Source: an uncultured bacterium
GTDB lineage: Bacteria; Bacteroidota; Rhodothermia; Rhodothermales; UBA10348
Assembly (NCBI GenBank): GCA_943788505.1
Contig: CALSQR010000002.1
Coordinates: 569,213-633,212 of the forward strand
Direction of reading: 5' to 3'
DNA length: 64,000 nucleotides
Shown: piece after piece, positions 35,894 through 63,029 of the stretch
Position numbering within the stretch: the first letter of the stretch is position 1
Layout: the number at the start of each line of letters is the position of its first letter
Position numbers and translations under genes: made by a program
Notes under the pieces: generated by a model
What the model saw: only the letters and a program-made list of their open reading frames with translations
Told to the model about the DNA's origin: nothing
Databases searched by the model: none

Positions 35894-36166
35894 ATGTATC
35901 AACTCATAGGAAAACAAGTCAGAGTTCACCTTTACAGCCGTGAAGGGATTGCTGTCGGAACTATTACCGGCAGGGTTGCCGATGTATCTGAGGGCGTAGA
36001 GGTCTCTGCTGGCATGAAAAAGGATCTCGTATTCGTAGTCGACATCGACTCGGGAGATCCCGAAACGCCGTACAAAAATAGTGCAGGGATGGAAGGAGAA
36101 TCATGGTTCGCCATCCAGGACGTCGAGGTTATCGACGATACAAATCCACGCCTATTCTCCAATTAA
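35894..36166 (+). CDS. Hypothetical small protein
   Basis: 90 aa counted from MYQLIGK; no motif was recognised. Confidence 0.2.
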   Translation: MYQLIGKQVRVHLYSREGIAVGTITGRVADVSEGVEVSAGMKKDLVFVVDIDSGDPETPYKNSAGMEGESWFAIQDVEVIDDTNPRLFSN

Positions 36167-36234
36167 TGCTCCTCTACGCAGGGCAAGTCTACGGATAGTT
36201 GCTTTTAATGTAACGGTGTAAGTTACTTTATCGT

Positions 36235-36810
36235 ATGTCTGACACACGCTATTCAACAGCCCTGCATATCCTCGTCTTGCTTTCAGCAGAGCGCGACGAG
36301 CACCATACCTCAACGTCTATTGCCGAGCAGTTGGGCACCAATCCTGTGGTCGTGAGACGTTTGATGGCAGACCTCTCGCGAAGCGGGCTCGTAGAGACGC
36401 GCCGTGGTGCTGGTGGCGGTGTATCACTCAAAATGGATCCCTCTGAGATCTCGCTGGGCGAATTAGCTGATGTGATTGAAGCTGACCTCACGTTTGATGC
36501 GCACAAACTGCCAGATGAGATAGCTGATCCGGCTGATGTCCCGATGAATGGTGCAGATCTGGCTTTGGGCCCGCAGGATGACGGAAAAGATCATCTCCCA
36601 GATGCTATTCTACGGACGATTGAAGCGCAGCGACGCGAATTACACACCGCTGCTATCATTCAAATGGACAGGATGACGTTGAAAGACCTTACACAGGCCG
36701 CGACATTACGTGCTGACCTCGCGACGCTCGTTGCCAGAGGACTTTCTGATGCTGATATTCGCTCCGGCTACCATATCGAGAGCGGACGACTAGTGCCGAA
36801 CGAGCCATGA
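36235..36810 (+). CDS. Rrf2-family transcriptional regulator (extended C-terminus)
   Basis: YSTALHILVLLS...TSTSIAEQLGTNPVVVRRLMADLSRSGLVETRRGAGGG is the Rrf2 wHTH signature. Confidence 0.7.
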   Translation: MSDTRYSTALHILVLLSAERDEHHTSTSIAEQLGTNPVVVRRLMADLSRSGLVETRRGAGGGVSLKMDPSEISLGELADVIEADLTFDAHKLPDEIADPADVPMNGADLALGPQDDGKDHLPDAILRTIEAQRRELHTAAIIQMDRMTLKDLTQAATLRADLATLVARGLSDADIRSGYHIESGRLVPNEP

Positions 36811-36964
36811 GGTTGGGAGACTAGCATCGGATTGTTTGGTGTTGATTTGCTCGGTATTGAATAGATGCAAATGACCAAGGATAGCCGCATTGCGTGAGTA
36901 ACAGTTGGCGGAGTCTGGTTACCCAAAGCCACACGCTACTTGATTACCGTTCACGATTGGTTTT

Positions 36965-39454
36965 TTGAACGGTTTTCCCCATCAGCCCACATCGATTTCC
37001 TGGTTATCTGATCTGTCTCCTCTCTCATCCATAGTTCAAACGCTACCCGAGCACTTGAGCGAAAGGGCGCGGCCACTGTCGAATCGCGAGTCTAATCCGA
37101 AAGGGACATTCGTTTTGTATTGGATGCATCATGCGGTGCGTGCCGATGAAAATCCAGCACTAGATACTGCGGTTGCACTGGGCACGATTATGGATTGCCC
37201 TCTTTTGGTGTATCAAGGGCTTTCTGGCAATCACCCATTCAATTCCGATCGGCATCACACCTTCATTTTAGAAGGCGCTCGTGACGTGCACTTTCAACTG
37301 AAGGAACGAGGCATCAGGCATGCCTTCCACCTCGGTCAAAACCCGTCTATTCCTGGGCCACTGCGCAATCTGATTGACACGGCAAGTGTAGTAGTGACAG
37401 AGGACTATCCAGCACCTCCATTCAAGCGATGGACCCAACGTTTGCATGATGAGTCATCGACCCCCTTTCTGCTCGTAGACGCACACTGCATATTGCCGAT
37501 GCAGCAGGTCGGCAAAGGATATGGCCGAGCCTACCACTTCAGGAATAGGATTGGCGATGAGGTACTTGATCGAGCATCTCGTGCGTGGCCACTCATAGAC
37601 GCTACCCCTGCATCGCCGTCAATTAGTGAAGTAGGGTTTGAGCCTATTGATTGGGAATCGGCCAGGATTTGTGACCTAGTTGCTGCGTGCCAGATTGATC
37701 ATTCCATTGGTCCTGTACCCCACACAGTTGGCGGATCCTTGGCAGGGTACAGCCGATGGGGCGTTTTCCTTGAGCACGGGCTTACTCGATACGCCCGGCA
37801 TCGTAATGATCCGACTGCCGAGCATGGCGTGAGCCGTATGAGTGCCTATCTGCATCACGGACACGTATCGCCTTTTCGACTTGCGCGAGAAGCAGCCATT
37901 AAGGGGTCAGAAGGCGCAACAAAATTTCTGGACGAGTTGCTGATCTGGCGCGAGCTTGCTTTCAATCTTTGCTTTTACAACGACGGCCTTTCAACCCTTG
38001 AGATCTTACCCGATTGGGCCCGAAAGACCTTCGCTGCGCACGAAACGGATGAACGAGAGTCGACCTATTCGTGGGAAGAACTTGCTCGGGCTAAAACTGC
38101 TGATCCATTGTGGAATGCAGCCCAAACCTCGCTGGTTATCCATGGCGAGCTGCACAATAATGTCCGGATGACATGGGGAAAGGCTGTACTGGGATGGACT
38201 CGGAACGCAGAAGAAGCCTTAGAAATGCTCTTAGACCTAAATCACCGATATGCGCTTGATGGATCAGATCCGAACTCATGGGCAGGAATTCTGTGGTGCC
38301 TCGGCCTTCTCGATCGACCATTTTTCCCAGAGCGGCCCATTCTAGGCTCCGTTCGACCGCGATCATCGAAACGACATGCCGAGCGGATGGATATGTCCGC
38401 TTATGAGCGCAAAGTCTCTCGGCCGGCCCGGCCTGATAGCCCGACCGTAGCTGTCATTGGCGCCGGGCCGGCCGGTCTCATGGCCGCCCGGACCCTGCGA
38501 GACCATGGCCTTGAAACGACGGTATTCGACAAAGGACGGGGTCCGGGCGGCCGCACCTCCACCCGCAGAGATGCTGACCGTTCATTCGATCATGGTGCAC
38601 CCTTTTTCACCCTTACTGATCCCCGTCTCTCCCGGCTGAAAGAATCCTGGAAAGATCAAGGCTTGATCGCTCCTTGGCCAGCGCCAAGCCAAGAACCCCA
38701 AACTTGGACGGCAATCCCCACGATGAGCGCGCTGGCTAAGCATCTCGCCAGTGATTGCAGGCTACTCACCAATACACGCGTAACATCTCTGAACAGGAAA
38801 GATGATGAGTGGTGGATCTCGGCTGAGCAGTTATCCGACGAGCAGACGTACGGACCTTTCGATGCCGTCATTGTAGCGATTCCACCCGAACAAGCAGCTG
38901 ACCTCGTCTCTGCATCGGCCCACCTCCATGACACAGCAACATCCGTGCATTCAGAAGCGGTTTGGTGCGCTGCCATTACGCTTGGTGAGGGCCTTTCGGT
39001 ATCAGAAAACGTAATGAACTCTGCGTCTGGCCCCCTGTCATTGGCCATTAAGAACTCAGCAAAACCCGGCCGCGACGCAGGTGAAACGTGGGTTCTTCAT
39101 GCGAGGGCCGATTGGACTGCGGCGAATATGGAAGCTGAGCGCGAGGACGTCATCGCAAACCTCTGTCGAGAATTTTTCGACATGGTGGGTTGTGCTCCAC
39201 AAGAAATTACCCATTCCATGGCTCATCGGTGGAAGTATGCCCAGGCATCTAACCCCTTGAAAATCGAAAGTGATTGGGATGAGGAGCTCCGCCTGGGGCT
39301 TTGCGGCGAATGGCTACATGGCGGCAGTATCGAAGGCGCCTTGCTTTCTGGCATGGCGGCTGCCGGACGAATAGTGGGTATGCCGCCCATTCGGATGATA
39401 TCTGTCGGCACCGGTTTACAACAGAATCTCTTCTCGCTGGAGGGATCTAAATGA
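36965..39454 (+). CDS. Fusion protein: class II CPD photolyase (N, ~1-500) + renalase-like NAD(P)/FAD-dependent oxidoreductase (C, ~505-829)
   Basis: N-terminal class II photolyase motifs VLYWMHHAVRADENPAL, SRMSAYLHHGHVSPFRLAR, LIWRELAFNLCFYND, DPLWNAAQ, NNVRMTWGK and DPNSWAGILWCLGLLDRPF. There is no stop or start codon before the C-terminal part, which has a Rossmann motif VAVIGAGPAGLMAARTL plus FDKGRGPGGRTSTRR and FDHGAPFFT (renalase-like). Confidence 0.75.
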   Translation: MNGFPHQPTSISWLSDLSPLSSIVQTLPEHLSERARPLSNRESNPKGTFVLYWMHHAVRADENPALDTAVALGTIMDCPLLVYQGLSGNHPFNSDRHHTFILEGARDVHFQLKERGIRHAFHLGQNPSIPGPLRNLIDTASVVVTEDYPAPPFKRWTQRLHDESSTPFLLVDAHCILPMQQVGKGYGRAYHFRNRIGDEVLDRASRAWPLIDATPASPSISEVGFEPIDWESARICDLVAACQIDHSIGPVPHTVGGSLAGYSRWGVFLEHGLTRYARHRNDPTAEHGVSRMSAYLHHGHVSPFRLAREAAIKGSEGATKFLDELLIWRELAFNLCFYNDGLSTLEILPDWARKTFAAHETDERESTYSWEELARAKTADPLWNAAQTSLVIHGELHNNVRMTWGKAVLGWTRNAEEALEMLLDLNHRYALDGSDPNSWAGILWCLGLLDRPFFPERPILGSVRPRSSKRHAERMDMSAYERKVSRPARPDSPTVAVIGAGPAGLMAARTLRDHGLETTVFDKGRGPGGRTSTRRDADRSFDHGAPFFTLTDPRLSRLKESWKDQGLIAPWPAPSQEPQTWTAIPTMSALAKHLASDCRLLTNTRVTSLNRKDDEWWISAEQLSDEQTYGPFDAVIVAIPPEQAADLVSASAHLHDTATSVHSEAVWCAAITLGEGLSVSENVMNSASGPLSLAIKNSAKPGRDAGETWVLHARADWTAANMEAEREDVIANLCREFFDMVGCAPQEITHSMAHRWKYAQASNPLKIESDWDEELRLGLCGEWLHGGSIEGALLSGMAAAGRIVGMPPIRMISVGTGLQQNLFSLEGSK

Positions 39455-40110
39455 GCGCAAACGAACCCAGCAGCTTGATCATTGGAATTGACCTCTCAGG
39501 CCCATCAAATCCCGCTGACACTGTTGTAAGCCTATTCAGCGAATACACTGATCGGCTCGAATATATCGGGCATTATGAGCATTGCTCTGACGCTGACATC
39601 GTCCGACTCCTAGAAAAAGCCTCGTCCCACCTTCATGTGACCATCGGATTAGATGCACCGTTGTCCTATCAGGACGGAGGCGGAGATCGGATGAGCGATC
39701 GGTCGCTCAGAAAAGTACTCATGGGTGCTGGGATGCCCTCTGGAACGGTCATGACGCCAACCATGACGCGCATGGCGTATCTGACGTTGCGGGGAATCAC
39801 GATAGCGCGTCTTCTACGATCATTACATGCTGATGCTAACATCGTTGAAGTCCATCCGCATGGCAGTATGGCCTTAGCAGGTGCGCCCATCGAATTGGTC
39901 CGTACTATGAAAGCGGAGGCAGCAAGCCGTCAGGGACTTGCTCATTGGCTTGGCTCACAAGGCCTTGCTAGACTACCTGAAGGGCCACATTCAGATCACG
40001 TGATTGCCTCAATTGGCTGTGCTTTTGCAGCCTGGCTCTGGCAAACCGGCCGAAGTACTTGGAAAGCTGCAGCTATCCCGCCTCATCACCCGTTTGACTT
40101 CGCCTGCTGA
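39451..40110 (+). CDS. DUF429-like protein (predicted RNase-H-fold)
   Basis: IGIDLSGPSN N-terminus. The start overlaps the upstream stop in an ATGA arrangement. Confidence 0.45.
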   Translation: MSANEPSSLIIGIDLSGPSNPADTVVSLFSEYTDRLEYIGHYEHCSDADIVRLLEKASSHLHVTIGLDAPLSYQDGGGDRMSDRSLRKVLMGAGMPSGTVMTPTMTRMAYLTLRGITIARLLRSLHADANIVEVHPHGSMALAGAPIELVRTMKAEAASRQGLAHWLGSQGLARLPEGPHSDHVIASIGCAFAAWLWQTGRSTWKAAAIPPHHPFDFAC

Positions 40111-40137
40111 ACGACTTCTCTATCCCGTTTAAAACGT

Positions 40138-41376
40138 ATGACCCCACACGTTCTCATTATTGGTGCCGGCCTTTCCGGACTAAACTGCGCTCTTGAGCTG
40201 CAGAAAAAGGATATACCGTTCACTATTCTGGACTCCTCTGATGCGGTCGGTGGCCGTATCAGGACGGATAACATCGATGGCTTCCGCCTTGATCGGGGAT
40301 TTCAGATTTTTCTTACCGCCTACCCCGAAGCCCGCGCAGTACTGGATTATGATGAGCTGAATCTGCATTCATTTAGACCCGGGGCTATGGTTCGGCTAAA
40401 CGGGAAATTCCGCCTTTTATCGGACCCCCTGCGTCGTCCCCAAGATGTCTTTTCAACCCTGTTTTCCGGAGTGGGCACACTGCGAGATAAATTGAAGGTC
40501 GCAATGATGAGGAGGACTCAAGATGGTAGCATGTCTACCGGTCCAGAAACCTCCATCATGGAAAAGCTGCAGACGACTTGGGGCTTTTCGGCTGGTATGA
40601 TCGATAGTTTTTTCAAGCCCTTCCTTGGGGGCATCACGCTCGATGAAAACCTGGGTACGTCTAGCCGTTTCTTCGATTTTGTGATGGGAATGTTTACTAA
40701 AGGGAAGGCTTCCTTTCCAGCAGGGGGCATGCAAGCCATTCCAGAGCAAATGGCAGCCAAACTGCCAGCCGAATCCATCATTCTAAAGGCTCGCGTGACA
40801 GCCATCAACGGATCCCACGAGGTCATTTTAGAAGATGGCCGGCGATTCGAAGGAAGCCACGTCGTACTTGCCACAGGCATGACCGATGCTCTGGCACTGG
40901 ACCCTGGAGCTACTGAGCGCACATGGAACGGTACCACGTGTCACTACTTCGCAGCCGACGCAGCGCCGTTCAATGAACCGGTCCTCCTATTAAATGGTGA
41001 GCCCGGCCGAAGTAGCGGATCAATCAATTCCATCGTCGTCCCGTCGAATGTGGCGCCTGGGTATGCGCCAAAGGGACAGCATCTCATCTGCCTTAGTAGT
41101 ATTGGCGTTGACGAGTCAGATGCTTCGAAACATCGTGAGCGGGTCCTAACGGAGGCTGCCTCCTGGTTTGGAGACGAGGTAAGTACCTGGCGGCATCTCC
41201 AGACCTACCGAATTACCCATGCTCTTCCGCGCATGGATACGCTTCCCGATTCTCCTCCTATCAGAGTGCTTGACTCGGGAATAATCCAATGTGGCGACCA
41301 TCTTTCCACCTCTTCCATTAATGGTGCATTGGCCTCTGGACGCCATGCAGCGGACCATCTACAACAGACTCTTTGA
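40138..41376 (+). CDS. NAD(P)/FAD-dependent oxidoreductase (amine-oxidase/desaturase-like)
   Basis: Rossmann motif VLIIGAGLSGLNCALEL followed by LDSSDAVGGRIRT. Confidence 0.7.
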   Translation: MTPHVLIIGAGLSGLNCALELQKKDIPFTILDSSDAVGGRIRTDNIDGFRLDRGFQIFLTAYPEARAVLDYDELNLHSFRPGAMVRLNGKFRLLSDPLRRPQDVFSTLFSGVGTLRDKLKVAMMRRTQDGSMSTGPETSIMEKLQTTWGFSAGMIDSFFKPFLGGITLDENLGTSSRFFDFVMGMFTKGKASFPAGGMQAIPEQMAAKLPAESIILKARVTAINGSHEVILEDGRRFEGSHVVLATGMTDALALDPGATERTWNGTTCHYFAADAAPFNEPVLLLNGEPGRSSGSINSIVVPSNVAPGYAPKGQHLICLSSIGVDESDASKHRERVLTEAASWFGDEVSTWRHLQTYRITHALPRMDTLPDSPPIRVLDSGIIQCGDHLSTSSINGALASGRHAADHLQQTL

Positions 41377-42125
41377 CTATGACATCTCCTGACTCTCCAG
41401 TCGTCATCATTCTTGGTGCTACCGGCGGCATTGGCTCCGAAGTCGTGAATCGCCTATCAGCCCGTGGTTGCAACCTTGTCCTGGCGGCACGCAACGAGAC
41501 TAATCTCAGCTTGTTGGCAACTCGCACCGGCGCAATGGCCATACCAACGGATGCAACAGATCCCGATCAAGTCCAAGCACTTGTTCAACAAACGGTACAG
41601 CATTTTGGGCGGATAGACGCAGTCGTTAATTGTGTCGGATCTATCCTGCTTAAGCCAGCCCACTTGACATCAATCGATGAATACAGGGAGACGATGGCTC
41701 TCAACCTGGACTCTGCCTTCTTCGTCGTCAAGCATGTCAGCCGAGCTATGATGAAAACCGGTGGGTCCATTGTCTTGTGCTCATCTGCCGTCGCTCGCAC
41801 GGGCCTGTTTAACCACGAAGCCATTGCAGCCGCCAAGTCTGGGATCGAAGGACTGGTCAGAGCCGCAGCTGCCACTTATGCTCAACGAGGCATCCGCGTA
41901 AACTGCGTTGCTCCTGGCTTAGTAGAAACACCACTAAGTGCGCGCTTGACCGCTAATGAGGCTTCCCGGGCCACTTCCGAAGCTATGCATGCACTCGGGA
42001 AACTAGGTACTCCAGGGGATGTGGCTGAAGCGATCGATTGGTTAGTCGATGGCACCCGAAGTAGCTGGGTTACGGGGCAGGTAATTGGAGTCGACGGCGG
42101 GTTAGGATCTGTTCGCCCTCGCTAA
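41373..42125 (+). CDS. Short-chain dehydrogenase/reductase (SDR)
   Basis: TGGIG cofactor motif, NCVG, a catalytic YxxxK-type region (AAAKSG) and an ATGA overlap with the upstream gene. Confidence 0.8.
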   Translation: MTMTSPDSPVVIILGATGGIGSEVVNRLSARGCNLVLAARNETNLSLLATRTGAMAIPTDATDPDQVQALVQQTVQHFGRIDAVVNCVGSILLKPAHLTSIDEYRETMALNLDSAFFVVKHVSRAMMKTGGSIVLCSSAVARTGLFNHEAIAAAKSGIEGLVRAAAATYAQRGIRVNCVAPGLVETPLSARLTANEASRATSEAMHALGKLGTPGDVAEAIDWLVDGTRSSWVTGQVIGVDGGLGSVRPR

Positions 42126-46709: not shown

Positions 46710-47810
46710 GTGCCTGTTTACCTTCATGCTGCCCGGACCATCGTCCCGGAAACCTCCTATACCCAGGATGAGGCAGGCGAAGTCATGCTACGCTCGCTGG
46801 ATCCTGAAAGCCGTGCTGGACGGCTTGTCCGGCGCATCTACCGGCATTCTGGCATCGAGAAACGGCACAGCGTCATTCGCGACTTGAAAGAGCCGGCCGA
46901 TGGCAACTTGTTCTTTTCGAAGGAGGGCAAGTTCTTATCCCCCTCTACCGGCACTCGGAATGACGTCTACGCCCGGGAGTCACGTCCGCTCTTTGTAGCA
47001 GCTGCGAAGGCTGCCATCGACGCGAGCCCCGAGCATGAGGCCTATGACGTTACGCATGTCATTACGGTGTCCTGCACCGGATTCAATGCGCCCGGACCCG
47101 ACTATTTTATTGTTCGAGACCTGGGTTTGAAGCCGGAAGTCCGCCGCTTTCACATCGGCTTTATGGGTTGCTATGCCGCGTTCCCAGCGCTCCGCATGGC
47201 CCAGGCCTTCTGTGAAGCAGACCCGAATGCGGTTGTGTTGATCGTCTGTTTGGAGCTCTGCTCCTTGCATTTGGAACCGTCCGAAGAAATCGACGACATC
47301 CTGGCCTTTTCTGTGTTCGCAGATGGTGCTGCCGGTGTCATTGTAAGCGCCCGAGAACCCGGTTCGAAGGGCGCGCTGCGCATTGACGCTCTAGAATCAA
47401 CTATCGCACCGGACAGCGAAAGTGACATGGCCTGGACGATTGGAGATAAAGGATTCAAAATGGTCCTCTCCACGTATGTGCCGAAGGTCCTGGAATCCAA
47501 CGTGAAAGACGTCGTGGATAGCGTCCTCACGCCATCGGGACATACGATGGAAGACATCGACCAATGGGCGATCCACCCCGGCGGTCGCGCCATTCTTGAC
47601 CATGTGGCTAGTGGTCTTGACCTAGCTGCCGATGCACTCGATACCTCACGCGCCGTTCTACGCGATTATGGCAATATGAGCAGCGCAACCGTCCTGTTCG
47701 TACTCTCTGCCATGCTGGATGACGAAGCCGTCAAGGAAGATGACCATATTTTGGCGATGGCGTTCGGACCCGGCCTCACCGTTGAAACAGGTCTTTTTAC
47801 ACGCGTCTGA
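46710..47810 (+). CDS. Type III polyketide synthase (chalcone/stilbene synthase family)
   Basis: Active-site Cys context (VSCTGFNAPGPD), the GFMGCYAAFPALRMA segment and His/Asn regions (IHPGGRAILD, FGPGLT). Confidence 0.85.
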   Translation: MPVYLHAARTIVPETSYTQDEAGEVMLRSLDPESRAGRLVRRIYRHSGIEKRHSVIRDLKEPADGNLFFSKEGKFLSPSTGTRNDVYARESRPLFVAAAKAAIDASPEHEAYDVTHVITVSCTGFNAPGPDYFIVRDLGLKPEVRRFHIGFMGCYAAFPALRMAQAFCEADPNAVVLIVCLELCSLHLEPSEEIDDILAFSVFADGAAGVIVSAREPGSKGALRIDALESTIAPDSESDMAWTIGDKGFKMVLSTYVPKVLESNVKDVVDSVLTPSGHTMEDIDQWAIHPGGRAILDHVASGLDLAADALDTSRAVLRDYGNMSSATVLFVLSAMLDDEAVKEDDHILAMAFGPGLTVETGLFTRV

Positions 47811-48506
47811 ATGCCCACTCTGTTCTTGTCATCCCGCCGCGAGGATCTCGTCGAGCTCATGGACGATCCGGAGTGCGACAGGGAGTTGCTGGAAAACACC
47901 TACCGGTGGTTCGAAAAACTGAACCCTCTTCTGGCCAGGTGGCGAAGCGTCTACTGCCATAGAATTCGCCCCTTGCTCGACCCAACCACGTCGACCCGCA
48001 TTCTTGATGTTGGTTGCGGTGGTGGCGACTTGGCCAGGCAGTTGGCTCGATGGGCAGCACAAGATGGCCTGAAGGCTGACATCACAGGCATCGACCCCGA
48101 CCCCAGAGCGATACACTTCGCCCAGTCTCGACCGAATCCAGACGATGTCCACTTCTTGGAACTCCATTCAGCGGATCTGGCGCGCCGAAATGCGACGTTC
48201 GATATTATCCTGTCCAACCACGTCCTGCATCATATCAAAGATGAGCATTTGGTCGGGCTGATGAAGGATTGCGAAGCCTTGAACGCCCGGCTCGTGATCC
48301 ACAATGACATCAATCGAGATGACCTTGCATGGCTGCTGTTCTGGCCAGTTGGCCTCGTTTGTAGGAAGTCCTTCATCTTGTCCGATGGTTTGCGCTCCAT
48401 CCGCCGTTCCCGGACCGCCCACGAACTCGACCGGATCGCACAAACCGGCTGGTCAGTCGAGCGTCTTTTCCCGTTCCGCTGTCTCCTCATCTTTGAATCG
48501 GAATGA
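47811..48506 (+). CDS. SAM-dependent methyltransferase
   Basis: Motif I ILDVGCGGGDLARQL. The gene directly abuts the PKS stop codon. Confidence 0.7.
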   Translation: MPTLFLSSRREDLVELMDDPECDRELLENTYRWFEKLNPLLARWRSVYCHRIRPLLDPTTSTRILDVGCGGGDLARQLARWAAQDGLKADITGIDPDPRAIHFAQSRPNPDDVHFLELHSADLARRNATFDIILSNHVLHHIKDEHLVGLMKDCEALNARLVIHNDINRDDLAWLLFWPVGLVCRKSFILSDGLRSIRRSRTAHELDRIAQTGWSVERLFPFRCLLIFESE

Positions 48507-49648
48507 CCAGTAACGTGATCATTGTGGGTGGTGGGCCAATCGGGCTATATCTGGGGTGTCTTCTCCGCAATAAGGGACTCGAATGTCTGATTCTCGAAAA
48601 GCGGGTCGAGCGCAGCACCCACTCTCGCTCCATCGGCATCCACCCACCCGCGCTTCGCCAGTTGGCACAAGTCGGCATTGCAGATGATCTCGTCAAAAGA
48701 GGCATCAGGGTTAAGGAGGGTGATGGCTATCTCGGCTCCAAGCCCCTGGGAAGCTTGCCCTTCTCATTGTTGCCGCCTCCTTACTCATTTGTGCTGACCC
48801 TTCCACAACACGAAACGGAATCGCTCCTGGAAGCCCGCTACATTGAGCTTGGCGGTCGATTGGAGAAAGGAGTCAGTGTGACAGGACTGGAACAGGACGC
48901 GGGCTCGGTCGATGTCATCGCAACGAGATCTTCAGGCGAAGAGAGGCTAACCTGCGATTGGCTCATCGGCTGTGATGGCCGAAACAGCACGGTCCGGGGC
49001 CTCCTTTCCATTCCGATGCTCGGATCGTCCTACAACGACCATTACATGATGGGAGACTTTGAGGAGGCTCGAGAGCAGTCCGCTCGCGCAGCAATCCATC
49101 TGGGTTCGAAAGGGGTCGTAGAGTCGTTCCCCTTGGGCCATGGGCTCCGACGATGGGTCGCACGGGTCGAGCAGCCCCACAAGAGCGCTACCCATGCAGA
49201 TCTCGTGGGCTTGCTCACTAGGCACGTTCAAGAACGGACTGGTGTGACTCTGGCTCATGACGCCTGTATCATGACAAGTGCCTTCACAGCCGAACGATTC
49301 GAAGCCAAGGAATTCGCTTCCGGCCGCGTTATCCTAGCAGGCGATGCCGCGCACATCATCAGCCCCATTGGCGGACAGGGCATGAATCTCGGATGGCTGG
49401 ATGCCCAACTACTTGCTGAACTGCTTCACTCGAAGGACGGAGTTGCACTCAAACCCGAAGCAATTCAAGCAGCCTACGAGCCCGTTCGACGCCGATCTTT
49501 CCGCCGGGCTGCCCGCCGAGCAGAACTGAATATGTGGATGGGGCGGTCAGGATGGCTCTACCCCGCGCGTGCGCTCATGGCGCGACTGATACTGAGCCGA
49601 CCATTGCGCGGCTATTTCGTTCGGCTATTCACTATGCAGGACCTTTGA
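48503..49648 (+). CDS. FAD-dependent monooxygenase (UbiH/aromatic-ring hydroxylase family)
   Basis: Rossmann motif VIIVGGGPIGLYLGCLL, a DG motif (CDGRNSTVR) and the GD motif (AGDAAHIISPIGGQGMNLG). The start overlaps the methyltransferase stop in an ATGA arrangement. Confidence 0.8.
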   Translation: MTSNVIIVGGGPIGLYLGCLLRNKGLECLILEKRVERSTHSRSIGIHPPALRQLAQVGIADDLVKRGIRVKEGDGYLGSKPLGSLPFSLLPPPYSFVLTLPQHETESLLEARYIELGGRLEKGVSVTGLEQDAGSVDVIATRSSGEERLTCDWLIGCDGRNSTVRGLLSIPMLGSSYNDHYMMGDFEEAREQSARAAIHLGSKGVVESFPLGHGLRRWVARVEQPHKSATHADLVGLLTRHVQERTGVTLAHDACIMTSAFTAERFEAKEFASGRVILAGDAAHIISPIGGQGMNLGWLDAQLLAELLHSKDGVALKPEAIQAAYEPVRRRSFRRAARRAELNMWMGRSGWLYPARALMARLILSRPLRGYFVRLFTMQDL

Positions 49649-51376: not shown

Positions 51377-51718
51377 CTACACGGCATCGTCACCTCTTTC
51401 ACCAGAAGATACGCGGACTGCATCCAGTACCGGCGTGACGTAGATCTTACCGTCCCCACGGAGACCCGTATGGGCCTCTCGTTGGATGATTTCAATGATC
51501 TCATCCACCATGCTGTCCTCGACCACGGTTTCGATCTTGACAACGGCGACGTAATCCACCAAGTCTTCGGTAAAGCTGTGGGGCACGTCTTGAGCCCGAC
51601 TACGGCCGAATCCTTTCATGTCGCAGATACTCACTCCCGTGAGCCCTTCAATGTGGTGAAAGGCACGCGTCACGGCGGAGAGCTTGTGTGGCTTGATGTA
51701 GGCTTGGATCTGTTTCAT
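51377..51718 (-). CDS. P-II family (GlnB-like) signal-transduction protein, czc-associated
   Basis: 113 aa closely matching GlnB-like motifs (IKPHKL, KGFGRSRAQ, GDGKIYVTPVLDAVRV..GE.GDDA). The stop overlaps the czcA start. Confidence 0.8.
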   Translation of the reverse strand: MKQIQAYIKPHKLSAVTRAFHHIEGLTGVSICDMKGFGRSRAQDVPHSFTEDLVDYVAVVKIETVVEDSMVDEIIEIIQREAHTGLRGDGKIYVTPVLDAVRVSSGERGDDAV

Positions 51719-54700
51719 GGTTTTCTAGTGACTTGAGTAATGGATTCGGATGGTGGGGGACCGTCGCTGAACCATCGGTAAAGTGCCGGCACGACCAGCA
51801 GCGTCAGCACGGTGGAGGTGACAAGGCCGCCGACCACGACGGTTGCCAAGGGGCGCTGGACTTCGCTTCCCGTCGTCGTGGAAAAGAGGAGCGGAATGAG
51901 TCCGAGCGCGGTAGTAACAGCCGTCATAAGGACCGGGCGCAGGCGCAGGAGGGCACCGTCCACACTTGCCCGGTCCATAGGCGTGCCGTCCCGAATGAGC
52001 TGGTTGAGGTAGGTGACCAGCACCATTCCATTTTCCAGCGCGATCCCGAATAAGGCAATGAACCCGACCGACGCGGGGACTGAAAGGTTCTGGCCCGTTA
52101 TCCAGAGCGCTACAATGCCGCCCACAAGCGCCAGCGGAATGTTGAGCATGATGAGCGCTGCGTTCTTCAGCGAGTTGAAACTCGCGTACAGCATGAGCAA
52201 CACGATCAGAAGCGTGATGGGCACGACCACCATGAGCCGCTTGTTGGCTTCCTGTTGCAACCGGAATTGCCCACCCCATGTGGTAAGATAACCGGTCGGG
52301 AGCTCCACCTCCGAACGGATGACCTTTTGGGCCTCCGCTACGAATGAGCCAATGTCCCTGCCCTCCACATTCAGCTGGACGGTAATGAAGCGCTGGTTGT
52401 CCTGCCTCGTGATTTGTCGCGGTCCGACGACCTCGACAATCGTGGCCAGCGCGCCCAGTGGGACGGTACCTCCTCCGGGGAGCGGAATGAGGAGATTGGA
52501 AATGGCCTCCGGCGTTGAGCGCGCCTCCTCTTCGAAGCGGACATAGATGGGGAATCGGCGGATGCCTTCAAAAATCTGACCAGCCTCGGCCCCTCCAATG
52601 GCCGTGGCCACGGTACGCTGCACATCCGCCACGTTGATACCGTACCGGGCGATGGCTTGGCGATCGATGTCAATTTGGAGCTGGGGCGTGCCCGTGATTT
52701 GATCGGCTTGAACGTCGGCGGCGCCTTCCACGGTGTTCAAGGCAGCTGCAATTTCATCCGCCTTTGATTTGAGCAGGTCGAGATCGTCGCCAAACAGTTT
52801 GATAGCAAGCTCGGCCTTTACACCCTCGAGGAGTTCATCCACCGTCATCTGGATCGGCTGGCTGAAGTTTGTCAATACGCCCGGCACCTCACCCAACTCG
52901 TCGCGAATGGCGGAGAGCAGTTCGGCTTGGTTGTCAAACCGCCACTCGTCTTCCGGCGATAGCACCAGGTATATTTCGGCGGAGTTGATGGGGTCGGCGT
53001 GTGCGCCCACTTCGCCGCGACCGATGCGACTGACGACATCCGTGATTTCAGGAATGGCCATCAAGCGGCGTTCCACACGCAGCGTGGTCGCTTTGCTCTC
53101 CGTGATCGAAATGGACGGCGCCATGGTCAATCGCATGACGATGGTCCCCTCCTGAAGGGTTGGCGTGAATTCACTCCCGAGCTGCGGGAAGACGACGGCG
53201 CCGACTACAAGGAGCCCGGCAGCGAGGCCGACAGCCCAAGACCGGTGCCGGACAAAGGTGGCCACGATGGGGCGGTACCAGCCCGTAATCCGGTCCAGCA
53301 GTCGGTTGGCCAAGGGTTCCTTTCCGGGCTTTCCGTTGCTGGACTGCGTCTGTGGGGAGCGCATGAAGAAATGCGAGAGTACCGGGGCCAGCACAATCGC
53401 ATACACGAGCGATCCCAGCATGGCCAGCGCGACCGTGTAGGCCAACGGCCGAAAGGTCTTACCCTCGACGCCCTGCAGTGTGAAGAGAGGCAGGAATACA
53501 ACGATGATAATGAGCACGGCGAATGCCACGGGTCGTGCTACTTCGGCACAGGCCCGCGCCACGACGTGTACGCGGGGCTCTTCCGGACCGGCCTCTTTGA
53601 GCATCCTGTCCACGTTTTCAACCATGACAATGGCCCCGTCCACCATCATTCCGATGGCGATGGCCAAGCCTCCAAGGCTCATGAGGTTCGCCGATATGTT
53701 GAACTGCCCCATGAAGATGGCCGCAAACAGGACCGAGAACGGAATGGCAAGGGCGACCACGACGCTCGGACGCCACGAACCCATGAAAGCCACCAGAACC
53801 AGAAGAACCAGGAGAATTCCCTGCCAGAGCGCGGTTGTGACCGTCGCGACGGCAGCCTCCACGAGCGTTTTCTGCTCGTAGTAGGGGACGATGTTGACGC
53901 CCTCGGGAAGCGCCTCGTTGATGGCAGCGAGTCTGGTCTCGACACGGCCAATGACGGTCGAGGAATTGGTGCCATACAGCTTGACGACCATACCCGAGAC
54001 GACTTCTTCAACGCCGCCGCGTGTCTGCAGGCCGCGCCGGATGGCGCCGCCAACCTGGACGGTGGCCACATCTTTCACGAAAACCGGCGTGCCGTCGGCC
54101 GTTCTGACCACAACGTTTTCGAGGTCGGTTATGCCAGTGGCGAGTCCGACGGATCGGACCACGAACTGCTCCGCATTCTGCTCGATGTACTGCGCGCCAA
54201 CATTGAGATTGTTTTCCTCGAGCGCATGTGTCACCTCTGCCAGCGTGACGCGGTACTGGAGTAGGGCCTCCGGCCGGACCACGACCTGGAATTGCCGCTC
54301 GTATCCCCCGATTCCAAGGACCTCTGTCACCCCAGGAACGGTCTGGAGACTCGTTTTCACGATCCAGTCCTGCATCGTGCGCAGTTCCTCGAGCGAATAT
54401 TGGCCTGTCGTATCGTCCAGATAGTAGAACAGGACCAGGCCCATTCCAGTCGAAATCGGTCCCATTTCGGGCTCGCCGAACCCGGGAGGGATGGTCTCAC
54501 GCGCCTCGTTGAGCCGCTCTCCGACGAGTTGGCGGGCGAAGTAAATGTCCGTTCCGTCTTCGAAATAGACGTTGACGACGGACAGGCCGAAGTTCGAAAC
54601 AGAGCGGACCTGCTCCACATTGGGAAGCCCGTTCATGGCGGTCTCGACGGGATACGTCACGTAACGCTCAACTTCCGCGGGGGCGAGGCCTTCCGTGACG

Positions 54701-54888
54701 GTAAAGACCTGGACGAGAGAGGGAGAAACGTCAGGAAAGGCGTCGATCGGGAGGCCCCGATACGTCCACCAACCGGCGACAATAACGATGGCACCGAGGA
54801 CGAGCACGAGGAGCTTGCTCTGCAGCGTAAATTGGATAATTTTGTTCATATCAGTGGGCATGGCCTCCTTCCAATTCGCTCTTACCAA
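51715..54888 (-). CDS. czcA: Heavy-metal efflux RND transporter, CzcA/CusA family
   Basis: 1057 aa, 12 TM and two large periplasmic loops, with typical HME-RND segments (AIGMMVDGAIVMVEN, LALENGMVLV). Confidence 0.9.
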   Translation of the reverse strand: MVRANWKEAMPTDMNKIIQFTLQSKLLVLVLGAIVIVAGWWTYRGLPIDAFPDVSPSLVQVFTVTEGLAPAEVERYVTYPVETAMNGLPNVEQVRSVSNFGLSVVNVYFEDGTDIYFARQLVGERLNEARETIPPGFGEPEMGPISTGMGLVLFYYLDDTTGQYSLEELRTMQDWIVKTSLQTVPGVTEVLGIGGYERQFQVVVRPEALLQYRVTLAEVTHALEENNLNVGAQYIEQNAEQFVVRSVGLATGITDLENVVVRTADGTPVFVKDVATVQVGGAIRRGLQTRGGVEEVVSGMVVKLYGTNSSTVIGRVETRLAAINEALPEGVNIVPYYEQKTLVEAAVATVTTALWQGILLVLLVLVAFMGSWRPSVVVALAIPFSVLFAAIFMGQFNISANLMSLGGLAIAIGMMVDGAIVMVENVDRMLKEAGPEEPRVHVVARACAEVARPVAFAVLIIIVVFLPLFTLQGVEGKTFRPLAYTVALAMLGSLVYAIVLAPVLSHFFMRSPQTQSSNGKPGKEPLANRLLDRITGWYRPIVATFVRHRSWAVGLAAGLLVVGAVVFPQLGSEFTPTLQEGTIVMRLTMAPSISITESKATTLRVERRLMAIPEITDVVSRIGRGEVGAHADPINSAEIYLVLSPEDEWRFDNQAELLSAIRDELGEVPGVLTNFSQPIQMTVDELLEGVKAELAIKLFGDDLDLLKSKADEIAAALNTVEGAADVQADQITGTPQLQIDIDRQAIARYGINVADVQRTVATAIGGAEAGQIFEGIRRFPIYVRFEEEARSTPEAISNLLIPLPGGGTVPLGALATIVEVVGPRQITRQDNQRFITVQLNVEGRDIGSFVAEAQKVIRSEVELPTGYLTTWGGQFRLQQEANKRLMVVVPITLLIVLLMLYASFNSLKNAALIMLNIPLALVGGIVALWITGQNLSVPASVGFIALFGIALENGMVLVTYLNQLIRDGTPMDRASVDGALLRLRPVLMTAVTTALGLIPLLFSTTTGSEVQRPLATVVVGGLVTSTVLTLLVVPALYRWFSDGPPPSESITQVTRKP

Positions 54889-56107
54889 GCTCCGCCTTCA
54901 GCGCAAACACCCCGGAGGCGACGTAGCGCTCGCCTGGCTCCAGGCCACTTGAAATGGCCACCTGACCACCCGCGCGGTCGCCTGCTTGGACAGCACGCGG
55001 CTTGAACCCTTCCTCTGTCTGCACGAATACGACGGTCCTGCCCTCGACATCGACCAGCGCCGTGGCAGGGATCAACACGGCTACCTCAACGGCATTGATG
55101 GTCAGTAGACCGGTCACGAACTGACCGGGTCGCAGTCTGCCGGCTGGATTCGGGACAACGGTGCGGGCAATGGCTGTTCGGGTCTCCTCCCCGACTATGG
55201 GGCGGACATAGGAGATGGTTCCGCGAGTGCGGGGCTGCCCCGCACCGGCGTCAATGACAACTTCCTGACCCTCCCGGACGGTACCCAGATCCCGCTGATA
55301 AACCGAGAGGTCAGCCCAGACGGTGGACAGATCGGCCACTTCGAACGCCTCGGTGGCAGCTTCGACGGCCTCCCCGACTACGATGTGTTTCTCGATTACG
55401 CTTCCCGAAATGGGAGCGGTAAGGGGGTAGGCCACCAAGCTGCGTTCTTCTTCGCGAGGCAACGCTTCGATGTAGTCATCAGAAAAACCCAGTGCAATGA
55501 GTTTTTGACGCGCGGACCGCGTCCGGATACGCGCTTCGGCGTTCGCTTGTCGGGCTTCCAGGAAGTCGGCCTCGGAGGTGATTTCCTGATTATACAGTCG
55601 TTCTTCCCGCTCGAATGACGCGCGGGCCAGTTCCTGACGTTCGATTGCCGCGAGATAGTCCGCCTTGAGGTCTGCCAGCTCCCGGCTCTCAATGACCGCC
55701 ATGGTTTGACCGGCCTGGACATAGCTGCCCACGTTCGCACTTACGCTCCTGACAACGCCGGAAACGCGAGGGGTAACATGGGCATACCGGTCTTCGTTGG
55801 CACGTATTTCACCAGGAAGATTCTTCTCGACCGACATGGTGCCCGGTCCGGCTGTTTGGACATCAATCCCGAACTCCTCGATCTCCTCGGCGGTCAGCGT
55901 GACGAGATCTACTGCCTCGCCCGTTCCTTCGCCCGCCTGTTCGACTATCGGGACAGCAATCCTGTTTTCTGCGGTCCCGTACGGGCCGGGCGCAAGCCAC
56001 CAGACGACAAGGACGATTGCCAACAGTCCGATTCCCGTGGCGACCAGCTTCGCCCGACGGCTCATGGACTTCAGTTGGGTTATGGTGTTCTTGGTATTCA
56101 TGGTCAA
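54851..56107 (-). CDS. czcB: RND efflux membrane-fusion (periplasmic adaptor) protein, CzcB-like
   Basis: N-terminal TM helix, coiled-coil and beta-barrel MFP architecture. The gene overlaps the czcA start. Confidence 0.8.
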   Translation of the reverse strand: MTMNTKNTITQLKSMSRRAKLVATGIGLLAIVLVVWWLAPGPYGTAENRIAVPIVEQAGEGTGEAVDLVTLTAEEIEEFGIDVQTAGPGTMSVEKNLPGEIRANEDRYAHVTPRVSGVVRSVSANVGSYVQAGQTMAVIESRELADLKADYLAAIERQELARASFEREERLYNQEITSEADFLEARQANAEARIRTRSARQKLIALGFSDDYIEALPREEERSLVAYPLTAPISGSVIEKHIVVGEAVEAATEAFEVADLSTVWADLSVYQRDLGTVREGQEVVIDAGAGQPRTRGTISYVRPIVGEETRTAIARTVVPNPAGRLRPGQFVTGLLTINAVEVAVLIPATALVDVEGRTVVFVQTEEGFKPRAVQAGDRAGGQVAISSGLEPGERYVASGVFALKAELGKSELEGGHAH

Positions 56108-57474
56108 TTCTGGTTCGGGAGGATGCTACGAAGGGCATCTTCCACGGCGTGGATAGGGGTGGCAATAAGCCGCTCGACAGCTGCGCGCGCCTGGTGATAG
56201 TCTGCCAAGGCGTCGATGTAGGCGTTCTGCGTCTCGATGAGGGCACTCTGTGCGTCAAGTACGTTGAGCAGGTCGAACTCTCCTTCGTGGTAGCCCGTGA
56301 GGATGCCTTCAGAAGCTGCTCTGGCATTAGGAAGCGCATCGTCCCGCAGCATGCGCGCGGCATCGACCGACACAGCCAGCGTGCCGTAAAGGGTGGTGAG
56401 CTCCCACTCGGCACGCAGCAACGCCGATTCAGCGTCAGCTTCTACGGCCGAAATGCGTGCCTCGGCGGCCCGGATGGCACCTCTGTTCGTGTCGAGAAAG
56501 GGGATCGGAATCGAAATGCCCGATGTGACGGCGGCCTCTCCCACTTCATTGAAATAGGCTGCGCCGAAACGGAACGTGGGGTCCGGAATTCGGCTGGCGC
56601 GTTCCAAGCGGGCGTGTGCACGTGCCTCGTCAAGGATGGCGGCGTATTGCGCCAATTCCGGATTGAGTTGCAGGAGCGGGGTGAGTCTCTCGAGTTCTGG
56701 CACCGGGGCGAGCGTGGAGAGGTCCCCCTCCACGTCGATGGCAGCCGCTTCACCCCCGAAAGTGGAAGCGAGGCGGGCTCGGGCACTGAGCACGGCCCGG
56801 CGCGCGCGCTCAAGGACGGTCACGGCCGTCACGGCCGCAACGCGAGCCCGGCGAGCCTCTAGTGGAGAGACGGCTCCTTCGGCCGCTCGACGTTCAACCG
56901 CATCGGCCAGCCGTCTGGCAATCTCTCCCTGCTCTTCTGCGAGAGCAAGCCGCGCTTCTGCCGCCAACACGGACGTGAAAGCCTGACGGACCTCCGTGAC
57001 GACATTTAGCCGCGTCGATTCGACGTCCCACGCGGCACGGTCCGAGCTGCGCGCGGCCACATCGGCGCGGGCGCGACGGTCGCCGCCCAGCTCCAATGTT
57101 TGTGAGAATCCTCCGCCGACTTCCAGTGACTGGACGCCTGACCGCGATCCACTACCGCCAAACTCATGGACCCCGGCTTCCAGCTCCGGGTTGGGCGGCC
57201 GGCCCGCCTGGTAGGCGTCGTGTTCCCGGGCTTGCAGTTCGAAGGAAGCGGACCGGAGGGTCGGATTGTGTTGGATGGCGAGGGCGACTGCCTCGGCCAG
57301 GGTGAGCGGGCCTTCCAGCGTGACCGGGTCGTCGATACTCTCCACCGGGTGCGCGGAAATGAGGGGACGGGGCTCCGGATAGGAGGCGTTGTACGAGGAT
57401 GCGCAGCCAGCAGACATGCCAGCCAGCACAACCAGGACCGACGCAAGCGTCGGCCCGACAGGGTTGCGGATCAT
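56104..57474 (-). CDS. czcC: Outer-membrane efflux protein, TolC/CzcC family (lipoprotein)
   Basis: Lipobox (LAGMSAGC) and two long helical repeats typical of OEP. The gene overlaps the czcB start. Confidence 0.75.
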   Translation of the reverse strand: MIRNPVGPTLASVLVVLAGMSAGCASSYNASYPEPRPLISAHPVESIDDPVTLEGPLTLAEAVALAIQHNPTLRSASFELQAREHDAYQAGRPPNPELEAGVHEFGGSGSRSGVQSLEVGGGFSQTLELGGDRRARADVAARSSDRAAWDVESTRLNVVTEVRQAFTSVLAAEARLALAEEQGEIARRLADAVERRAAEGAVSPLEARRARVAAVTAVTVLERARRAVLSARARLASTFGGEAAAIDVEGDLSTLAPVPELERLTPLLQLNPELAQYAAILDEARAHARLERASRIPDPTFRFGAAYFNEVGEAAVTSGISIPIPFLDTNRGAIRAAEARISAVEADAESALLRAEWELTTLYGTLAVSVDAARMLRDDALPNARAASEGILTGYHEGEFDLLNVLDAQSALIETQNAYIDALADYHQARAAVERLIATPIHAVEDALRSILPNQN

Positions 57475-62045: not shown

Positions 62046-63029
62046 ATGAGCACACAAACTGACCCCACCGTACGCGTTCCAGCATCGCTTGTAAGCGCCA
62101 GTAACTCTGCCCAAGAGTACGCCCAGGCAGCACGTTCAAAGAACACCAAGAGGGCCTACCGGGCCTCCTGGAGAGACTTCGAAGACTGGTGCGAGCAAGT
62201 GGGTATAGTCGCTCTTCCTGCAACGCCTGAGACGGTCGCTATGTACCTATCCGCTCGCGCGTTACAGCTAAAAGTGGGTACGCTGGGCCACCGTCTTGCA
62301 GCGATCGCCGTTGCTCACAAAGTGGCCGGCTATCCCAATCCCACATCAAAGCGGGAAGAACCGCTTGCTAGCATATGGGCGGGCATTAAGCGTAAAAGGG
62401 GACAGCGCAAGACTCAGAAGATGCCGCTACTTGAAGCGCACTTGCGCAAGATCATCAAATTGAAAGACGCGGAAACCCATTCGGCAATTGGCGAGCTCCG
62501 TTGGATCCGTGATCGCGCTCTATTGCTAGTTGGTTTTGCTGGTGCACTTCGGCGTTCCGAACTCGTGGATATCGACATAAAGGATCTGACATTCGACGAG
62601 CGTGGCCTTCGGCTCTATATCCCACGGTCCAAAACGGATGTCGGTGGAGAAGGTGTTGAAATCGGTATTCCGGCAACCGGTACTGCGACGTGCCCAGTGA
62701 GAGCGGTCAAGGAGTGGATGGAAGCCGCTGGGCTTGACGAAGGCAAAGTGTTCAGAGCCGTTCGTCACGGCGGGATCATCACTGAGAGCCTTTCTACACG
62801 GGTCGTGGCGAACCTGGTAAAGCGTTATGCCGGTGACATCGGATTGGACCCAGGAGGCTTTTCAGGGCACAGCCTGCGTTCCGGACTCATCACTCAGGCC
62901 GCTACGAATGGGGCCAGAGAAGTAGACATCATGAGGCATTCGAGGCACAAGTCTGTTCCTGTCCTACGACAGTACGTCCGCAAGGCGACCGTGTGGGAGG
63001 ACAATGCTGCTGCGAAGGCGCTGGGCTGA
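62046..63029 (+). CDS. Tyrosine site-specific recombinase / integrase
   Basis: N-terminal SAM-like domain, followed by the catalytic R...HSLRSG...RHSRH...LRQYV tetrad (R-H-R-Y). Confidence 0.85.
   Translation: MSTQTDPTVRVPASLVSASNSAQEYAQAARSKNTKRAYRASWRDFEDWCEQVGIVALPATPETVAMYLSARALQLKVGTLGHRLAAIAVAHKVAGYPNPTSKREEPLASIWAGIKRKRGQRKTQKMPLLEAHLRKIIKLKDAETHSAIGELRWIRDRALLLVGFAGALRRSELVDIDIKDLTFDERGLRLYIPRSKTDVGGEGVEIGIPATGTATCPVRAVKEWMEAAGLDEGKVFRAVRHGGIITESLSTRVVANLVKRYAGDIGLDPGGFSGHSLRSGLITQAATNGAREVDIMRHSRHKSVPVLRQYVRKATVWEDNAAAKALG

Follow-up and report, generated by a model that had tools for sequence, protein, structure and literature searches.

Light-induced photolyase gene clusters are already known. 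The LitR regulon of Pseudomonas, whose induction by light has been established experimentally, comprises the photolyase PhrB, an SDR, an FAD oxidoreductase, CryB and FolE, and the LitR operator reads T(G/A)TACA-N12-TGTA(C/T)A (PMC9758184). What the accessory SDR and flavoprotein genes of these clusters do is obscure, and the role of renalase in physiology is a long-standing puzzle. We analyzed a 64-kb stretch of DNA (hereafter, the window) from an uncultured Rhodothermales bacterium (GCA_943788505.1, contig CALSQR010000002.1), in which a gene encoding a photolyase-renalase fusion is followed on the + strand by genes for a DUF429 protein, a second flavoprotein and an SDR. These genes form a real, tightly packed operon that is best regarded as a variant of the known light-inducible photolyase clusters. 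We propose, with a probability of about 0.68, that positions 36965–42125 constitute a single light/UV photodamage operon with its own promoter and operator, outside the control of the Rrf2-family regulator encoded just upstream. Its most interesting content is the uncharacterized fusion, with a tail resembling a clamp-binding motif, together with its RuvC-fold partner.

All five open reading frames of the initial annotation, counting the Rrf2 gene, were found on the + strand where it had placed them, and Pfam, NCBIfam and PDB searches upheld its family calls, including that of the fusion. Existing NCBI labels for the five are generic (Rrf2 family regulator, FAD-dependent oxidoreductase, DUF429 protein, NAD(P)/FAD-dependent oxidoreductase, SDR). 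The fusion gene (36965..39454, 829 aa, TTG start) joins a class II-type cyclobutane pyrimidine dimer (CPD) photolyase to a bacterial renalase-type FAD oxidase and a C-terminal tail. It is followed by the DUF429 gene (39451..40110, 219 aa; PF04250, 1.5e-13), which encodes a predicted nuclease of the RuvC fold (RNase H-like), by a gene for an amine-oxidase-fold FAD oxidoreductase that we call AO412 (40138..41376, 412 aa; Amino_oxidase, 4.5e-41) and that resembles phytoene desaturase (PDS) and PPOX, and by the SDR gene (41379..42125 from an ATG, or from a TTG at 41373; 248 or 250 aa; adh_short_C2, 1.6e-58).

Read from the sequence, the junctions between these genes bear out the operon-like packing of same-strand genes described previously. 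The fusion and DUF429 genes share an ATGA at 39451–39454, a true start/stop overlap, and a Shine-Dalgarno-like GGAGGG on the + strand (39439..39444) lies within the 3′ end of the fusion gene, 6 nt 5′ of the DUF429 ATG. The ATGA overlap and its embedded GGAGG are also kept in two related genomes (L082 and L083; codes L002–L089 denote genomic loci of relatives that we compared with the window), and the tight coupling of the two genes is therefore beyond chance. The reported 27-nt gap between the DUF429 and AO412 genes was confirmed and spans 40111–40137. A second ATGA overlap, placed at 41373–41376, was not: the sequence there reads TTGA and the first ATG of the SDR gene lies at 41379, 2 nt past the AO412 stop, so that the AO412 and SDR genes either overlap (TTG/TGA) or stand 2 nt apart. 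The leader, estimated earlier at ~150 bp, measures 154 nt from the Rrf2 stop to the TTG at 36965. No terminator-like site was found on the + strand inside 36.8–42.1 kb, nor in the wider scan of 35.8–43.3 kb, and no riboswitch or other RNA family of Rfam matched at E<=1 between 35.8 and 43.3 kb. At its 3′ end, the SDR gene overlaps a convergent prolyl aminopeptidase gene by 24 nt (42102–42125).

The first domain of the fusion, at residues ~33–485 (nt 37061–38419), matches TIGR00591 across residues 33–483 (7.4e-100) and aligns with the class II photolyases of M. mazei (PDB 2xry, 6e-61, residues 48–485) and rice (3umv, 7e-55). In the alignment with 2xry, equivalents of M. mazei W360, W381, W388, Y345, N403, M379, W305, W421 and E301 are all retained; the class II tryptophan triad (Mm W381-W360-W388), the terminal Tyr345 and Asn403 at the flavin N5 are aligned with identical residues, and W383, W404, W411, N426 and W444 of the fusion are invariant across 20 homologs. 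In these alignments the photolyase half keeps every residue that class II enzymes use for electron transfer, FAD binding and lesion binding, and with them an intact active site; we consider it a predicted working class II-type CPD photolyase.

The second domain, at residues ~494–804 (nt 38444–39376), aligns full-length with the renalase structure 4zcc (4.4e-50; fusion residues 495–804 against chain residues 5–324). Its FAD site of the GxGxxG type reads VIGAGPAG, and the fusion and renalase have in common the motifs GGR-S-RR, D-GAQYFT, NS-KPGR, W-LHA, AHRW-YA and CGDW...EGA-LSG; this part of the protein is a bona fide renalase-family domain. The linker between the two domains has the same length in 20 homologs. 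The start of the protein is less straightforward. In relatives, the start ATG aligns with a CCT codon (Pro19, 37019–37021) of the window's reading frame, and because an LPxHLxER motif at residues 27–34 is conserved, translation must start upstream of 37043, either at the TTG at 36965, as used by NCBI, or at a CTG at 37013. Several other pipelines call a 776-aa form from Met54 (P0001), which truncates the conserved N-terminus and would drop LPxHLxER along with part of the first photolyase β-strand (VLYWM). Gene callers often cut the fusion short at an internal Met in this way, and current database labels for the family say just ‘FAD-dependent oxidoreductase’ or ‘NAD(P)-binding protein’.

The best 120 protein matches to the fusion were all full-length fusions of ~800 aa, at 46–57% identity. 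A scan with one genome per species yielded at least 592 loci encoding a relative, of which 80 were kept; both domains were spanned in every one of these 80, placing full-length fusions in at least 80 species genomes. Carriers include Planctomycetota (among them the cultured Stieleria marina), Desulfobacterales, Gamma- and Alphaproteobacteria, Bacteroidota/Rhodothermales, Acidobacteriota, Myxococcota and Ca. Kuenenia. By sequence comparison, the photolyase-renalase fusion is thus a rigid, conserved and widespread arrangement. Given carriers among anaerobe lineages (Desulfobacterales, Ca. Kuenenia), one may ask if the renalase domain uses O2 as its acceptor. Literature searches for photolyase with renalase, for COG3380 and for photolyase with a clamp-binding motif found no study of the fusion; the sole trace found comes from a preprint on PhrSph98 homologs, where the legend of a figure marks a COG3380 domain on some sequences.

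Beyond the renalase domain, the fusion ends in a tail that carries the pentapeptide QQNLF (residues 819–823; 39419..39433, + strand). The consensus for binding to the bacterial β sliding clamp is QL[SD]LF or QLxLxL. The pattern Q-x-x-L-F occurs in 65 of 149 fusion tails, whereas 500 shuffles of these tails gave 0.9 on average and never more than 4; its forms include QLSLF and QMSLF, with QLSIPGL and QLSFPGL as variants. The segment preceding it is not conserved, and the tail as a whole is variable. The motif resembles a β-clamp-binding site and agrees with the pentapeptide form of the consensus, so that the fusion would probably dock on the clamp.

We compared the surroundings of the fusion gene across 81 loci. 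The commonest neighbor is an SDR gene, often directly adjacent (24/81 loci), followed by a PF04244 photolyase-family protein of the DPRP/FeS-BCP type (15/81), DUF2867-NmrA (12/81), an Fpg/Nei glycosylase (8/81), a second photolyase (6/81), the AO412 family (6/81), and SOUL, DUF2256+DUF3253 and DUF2805 (5/81 each). The neighbors of the fusion gene are photodamage and DNA-repair genes, and folE is another gene that adjoins it in the comparison across phyla. The gene order was also found to recur in relatives, as Fusion-DUF429-(FeS-BCP photolyase)-(flavoprotein)-SDR, which supports a photodamage operon. The fullest version is that of L083, where a minus-strand DUF5686 gene, a 90-codon open reading frame (orf90), the Rrf2 gene, a sulfatase gene, a NosD-like gene and a divergent folE (GTP cyclohydrolase I) precede Fusion-DUF429-DPRP-AO412-SDR, and a minus-strand prolyl aminopeptidase gene (PIP), HupE and M1 follow; here DPRP is the FeS-BCP/CryB-type photolyase of PF04244. 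L002 has the same arrangement minus NosD. L082 has a minus-strand folE followed by Fusion-DUF429-SDR, with no AO412, and L084 has Fusion-DUF2256/3253-DPRP-SDR, with no DUF429. In three Bacteroidota/Rhodothermaceae loci, the operon is headed by a regulator with helix-turn-helix and B12-binding domains, followed by DUF429-SDR-Fusion in L003 and L004 and directly by the fusion in L006. This domain combination is the architecture of the CarH/LitR photoreceptors. Measured against L083 and L002, gene loss in the window has removed the sulfatase, NosD-like and folE genes that lay between Rrf2 and the operon (36810/36965), as well as the PF04244 photolyase gene between DUF429 and the flavoprotein (40110/40138). 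The window's operon is a trimmed version of its relatives' cluster, minus DPRP and folE.

Two sets of elements in the leader are candidates for an own promoter and operator. The first consists of conserved blocks, GTAAC(A/G)G-N-ACCCAA (36898..36926, + strand), that align 5′ of the fusion gene in four sequences (the window, L002, L082 and L083); GTAAC-N17-21-ACCCAA occurs once in the window, against 0.04 expected, and at the same relative place in the three relatives. These blocks are promoter-like, possibly -35 and -10 elements of the extracytoplasmic function (ECF) type. Two planctomycete loci, L053 (13886–13915, − strand) and L065 (11872–11899, + strand), each hold one GTAAC-N-ACCCAA as well, a few kb from the fusion gene. 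The second element is a perfect palindrome, CCGTTCA-N12-TGAACGG (36947..36972, + strand), a candidate operator whose right arm holds the TTG start at 36965; GTTCA-N10-14-TGAAC occurs once in the window, against 0.27 expected. CGTTCA-N12-TGAACG is perfect in L082 and has one uncompensated mismatch each in L083 (spacer N11) and L002 (N12), where it lies 67–123 nt upstream of the ATG. Since the changes in relatives are uncompensated, we read the palindrome as a DNA site, and the alternative of an RNA hairpin at 36947–36972 was rejected. Neither of the Bacteroidetes SOS boxes (GGA-N5-TCC and CTAA-N5-TTAG; PMC8565304) matches the palindrome, and upstream of fusion genes outside the window's clade it occurs at a rate near background. 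A weak inverted repeat at 36840–36877 (11 nt, 82%), in the region where the initial annotation had suggested an operator, is not conserved in relatives and was dropped.

Published work assigns DUF429, of which no member has been characterized, to the RuvC clade within the RNase H-like proteins (PMC3985635), and our results agree with that placement: the predicted structure has a pLDDT of 94.7 and Asp/His residues are invariant or near-invariant. The fold and the conserved acidic residues fit a RuvC-like predicted nuclease. Compared with RuvC-family Holliday-junction resolvases, however, identity is 8–13%, the protein has ~60 extra residues, and it carries the family-specific invariant motifs GGGDR, VMTPT and HP-DFAC; a PDB sequence search gave no match at E<=1. 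A role in defense was considered and rejected, PADLOC having returned a weak match to the candidate PDC-S44 (4.8e-9) and Rossmann-only matches. The DUF429 subfamily is ~50% identical across phyla. AO412 has a predicted structure with pLDDT 93.8, and its PDB sequence search matched Rossmann regions only. Some of its homologs lie near heme genes: hemE and a PPOX-like gene (L088, 6001–11135) and coproporphyrinogen oxidase (L089, 6001–13245). SOUL heme-binding proteins adjoin fusion genes at the five loci counted above (e.g., L004 4390–4959 and L038 2487–3113). This proximity hints at the handling of porphyrins, which are photosensitizers. The SDR is generic by sequence, and close orthologs occupy the same operon position in L002, L082, L083 and L084. 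Another, more distant SDR (E ~1e-26 to 1e-37 against the window's SDR) occurs near fusion genes, mostly in Pirellulaceae and related Planctomycetota (L019, from Desulfosarcina, and L025, L032, L048, L052, L062, L067, L071, L076 and L079); it usually lies directly beside the fusion gene and divergent from it, the two sharing a strand only at L019 and L025. SDR and fusion genes have thus been paired a second time, independently.

We propose that the operon is switched on by light or UV through the promoter and operator of the 154-nt leader. The photolyase half would split pyrimidine dimers using blue light, and the renalase half would handle nicotinamide-dinucleotide chemistry tied to that photochemistry. 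Renalase oxidizes 2-/6-dihydroNAD(P) isomers (PMC10297141), and NAD(P)H is documented as a reductant when class II photolyases are photoreduced (Ignatz et al. 2018, as cited in PMC12723161). The domain may accordingly have one of two tasks: to oxidize aberrant 2-/6-dihydro-NAD(P) isomers arising from one-electron donation by NAD(P)H or from UV-A, or to pass on reducing equivalents that keep the photolyase flavin reduced. The C-terminal peptide would dock on the β sliding clamp, and DUF429, translationally coupled to the fusion, may cut DNA structures that are branched or damaged. Together, the SDR and the PDS/PPOX-like flavoprotein would act on a small molecule, as is presumed for their Pseudomonas counterparts. 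The analysis shows which genes are present, that catalytic residues are conserved, that the fusion is widely distributed, that its neighborhood is enriched in certain genes and that leader elements are kept; that the genes are co-transcribed and induced by light in this organism, that the tail binds the clamp, which substrates are used and what the renalase domain does are inferences.

A more specific version of this mechanism is a tentative suggestion that we hold to be rather improbable as a whole. In it, the fusion would be a clamp-tethered, self-servicing photolyase, its renalase domain either feeding electrons from NAD(P)H into the electron-transfer chain of the photolyase or at once re-oxidizing the toxic 2-/6-dihydro-NAD(P) isomers left by one-electron donation from NAD(P)H during flavin photoreduction, and its C-terminal QxxLF motif parking the enzyme on β clamps at UV-stalled forks, where the co-translated DUF429 nuclease would act too. 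If true, this would provide the first physiological context for a bacterial renalase and, to our knowledge, the first photolyase recruited through the sliding clamp.

Several observations weigh against reading positions 36965–42125 as one photodamage operon. The photolyase domain scores 335 bits against TIGR00591, below the curated cut-off of 550 bits, and the fusion has Thr where M. mazei has Y380, beside the proximal Trp (RMTWGK against RMYWAK); this change is the reason that a preprint gives for separating such sequences from the tested PhrSph98 clade. Whole clades of the fusion, such as the Desulfobacterales, are without a QxxLF tail, and the start codon in the window is non-canonical or uncertain, the TTG at 36965 sitting inside the leader palindrome. 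A consensus promoter scan of 35.8–43.3 kb gave counts at chance level. DPRP, folE, DUF2256 and CarH/LitR-like genes were sought across the window and none was found, the absence of CarH/LitR, folE and DPRP being the part that counts here. The full gene order is kept only where synteny extends well past the operon, through PIP-HupE-M1-PKS and for >20 kb, which weakens order conservation as evidence of function. Elsewhere, the DUF429 and AO412 families are found mostly in unrelated contexts, including a strict anaerobe.

The last two of these points feed the alternative that survives best, namely that only the fusion and the SDR form a photolyase module and that DUF429 and AO412 are unrelated housekeeping genes which share its transcription unit in this lineage. 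DUF429 homologs at ~50% identity occur in unrelated contexts in Syntrophotalea carbinolica and two other genomes, two of the three AO412 homologs that we examined do not adjoin photolyases, and AO412 and DUF429 are each missing from one relative (L082 and L084, respectively). However, two distinct layouts tie DUF429 to the fusion, namely Fusion-DUF429 in the clade of the window and CarH-DUF429-SDR-Fusion in L003 and L004; its start/stop overlap with the fusion gene is conserved together with the embedded ribosome-binding element; and AO412 homologs turn up repeatedly near fusion genes, no more than a few kb away, in Planctomycetota (L031, L036, L062 and L069), and also beside an SDR-photolyase pair in L089. 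We therefore regard this alternative as unlikely and retain the four-gene photodamage operon.

The initial annotation had instead called the operon Rrf2-regulated and possibly redox-responsive. In the form in which we weighed it, the upstream Rrf2 protein (gene at 36235..36810, + strand, 191 aa; PF02082, 7.5e-24) would repress or activate the operon through an inverted repeat in the leader, making it part of a redox- or light-responsive Rrf2 regulon. The gene is co-directional and ends just 154 nt upstream, and the window holds exactly two copies of GTAAC-N(5-17)-GTTAC, one before Rrf2 at 36210–36226 (N7) and the other in the leader at 36898–36922 (N15), against 0.15 expected, a count of two being reached in 1 of 100 shuffles; the GTAAC half-site of the leader is also kept in relatives. 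Yet this variable-spacer search was devised after the data had been seen, the right half-site GTTAC of the leader is kept in no relative, so that the N15 repeat is found in the window only, and its spacing differs from the N7 of the Rrf2 gene's own conserved palindrome. That palindrome, AATGTAAC-N7-GTTACTTT, lies at 36207–36229, just 5′ of the start codon of Rrf2; its form in L083 and L002 is AATGTAAC-N7-GTTACATT, giving a consensus over the three genomes of AATGTAAC-N7-GTTAC(A/T)TT, and it is likely to be an autoregulatory operator of the Rrf2 protein, a candidate site judged by its conservation.

The protein itself argues against redox sensing. Neither it nor its L083 ortholog contains a single Cys in translation, and it therefore cannot ligate an Fe-S cluster or act as a thiol sensor; its best PDB match is the cluster-less YwnA (1xd7, 8e-12). 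The genomic position of the gene points the same way. Three genes separate Rrf2 from the operon in L083 (the sulfatase, the NosD-like gene and the opposite-strand folE) and two in L002, no Rrf2 gene lies within 8 kb upstream of the operon in L082, and where a relative has Rrf2 nearby at all its distance from the operon is 2.5–5 kb. Its synteny partner is instead the DUF5686-orf90 side, and the adjacency seen in the window thus stems from the loss of intervening genes. With Rrf2 set apart from the operon in L002, L083 and L082, a palindrome of its own and different blocks in the leader, control of the operon by Rrf2 is unlikely, somewhat more so than the separate-module alternative; the gene is probably an adjacent neighbor outside the module, and the label ‘Rrf2-regulated’ should be dropped, while ‘redox-responsive’ is not supported. 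The orf90 counterpart in the window (35894–36166, + strand), between the DUF5686 and Rrf2 genes, has no Pfam match and is 82% identical to that of L083, compared with 55–57% for its neighbors; it is probably a real small protein that forms a unit with Rrf2.

A third alternative, in which the photolyase-like half is a cryptochrome-like light sensor that gates the renalase-type oxidase within a metabolic or pigment operon, draws on the short linker of fixed length (suggestive of tight coupling between the two flavin domains), on the metabolic look of the downstream flavoprotein and SDR, and on the sub-threshold score and Tyr-to-Thr change of the photolyase domain, but we consider it very improbable given the retention of all class II CPD-binding and catalytic residues, the enrichment of DNA-repair genes (Fpg/Nei, other photolyases and the RuvC-like DUF429) around fusion genes, and a clamp-binding-like C-terminal motif that points to DNA.

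The photodamage operon has two further neighborhoods of note in the window. A few kb downstream, genes for a type III polyketide synthase (PKS), a methyltransferase and an FAD monooxygenase stand in a row (46710–49648, + strand), in the same order as in L082; the L083 sequence ends before the matching region. The row looks like an alkylresorcinol-type lipid or pigment cluster. Farther along, a resistance-nodulation-division (RND) efflux operon (OEP, an HlyD-type adaptor and AcrB; 51715–57474, − strand) lies in a segment with a G+C content of 0.60–0.63, compared with ~0.52 elsewhere, and a phage-integrase-family gene (62046–63029, + strand) is a few kb away; the segment is possibly a horizontally acquired island.

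The covalent fusion of a class II photolyase to renalase, found across phyla, is a Rosetta-stone link between photolyase clusters and renalase. In many environmental bacteria, photoreactivation may also be tied to replication forks, as the clamp-binding-like tail and the RuvC-fold partner hint.

Set beside individual proteins of known structure or activity, the fusion differs in defined ways. Relative to M. mazei 2xry and the PhrSph98 clade (Sphingomonas sp. UV9), it has ~340 additional C-terminal residues that make up the renalase domain and the tail, and, unlike them, it has the N-terminal LPxHLxER motif and Thr in place of Tyr. Its second domain aligns full-length with bacterial renalase, as known from Pseudomonas savastanoi pv. 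phaseolicola (4zcc, 4zcd and 5krq) and P. syringae (3kkj), whereas the renalase here is joined to a photolyase domain and carries a QxxLF tail.

At the level of the locus, the closest described systems are the LitR/CarH clusters, represented by P. putida PplR and P. mendocina PmlR (PMC9758184), whose full component set is matched in the relatives of the window. The likeness to proteobacterial light-inducible photolyase clusters that the initial annotation had suggested is borne out in this form, the relatives' block holding the component list of the LitR regulon. The window itself has the photolyase, the FAD oxidoreductase and the SDR, and lacks CryB/DPRP, folE and a LitR gene. AO412 and the SDR correspond to the SDR and FAD-oxidoreductase pair of the Pseudomonas light regulon, the likeness of AO412 being one of component type with no orthology implied. 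DUF429 is extra here, the photolyase that stands alone as PhrB in Pseudomonas is of class II type and fused to renalase, and the UfaM/cfa and DUF1365 genes of the Pseudomonas clusters were not seen among the recurrent neighbors of the fusion gene. The leader palindrome has the hexamer-N12-hexamer geometry of the LitR operator with different letters (CGTTCA/TGAACG versus TGTACA), a resemblance only, and it has the promoter-like blocks on one side and the start codon on the other, a position that mirrors LitR Site 2 in P. mendocina; L003, L004 and L006 share with the LitR/CarH clusters a B12-binding regulator at the head of the operon.

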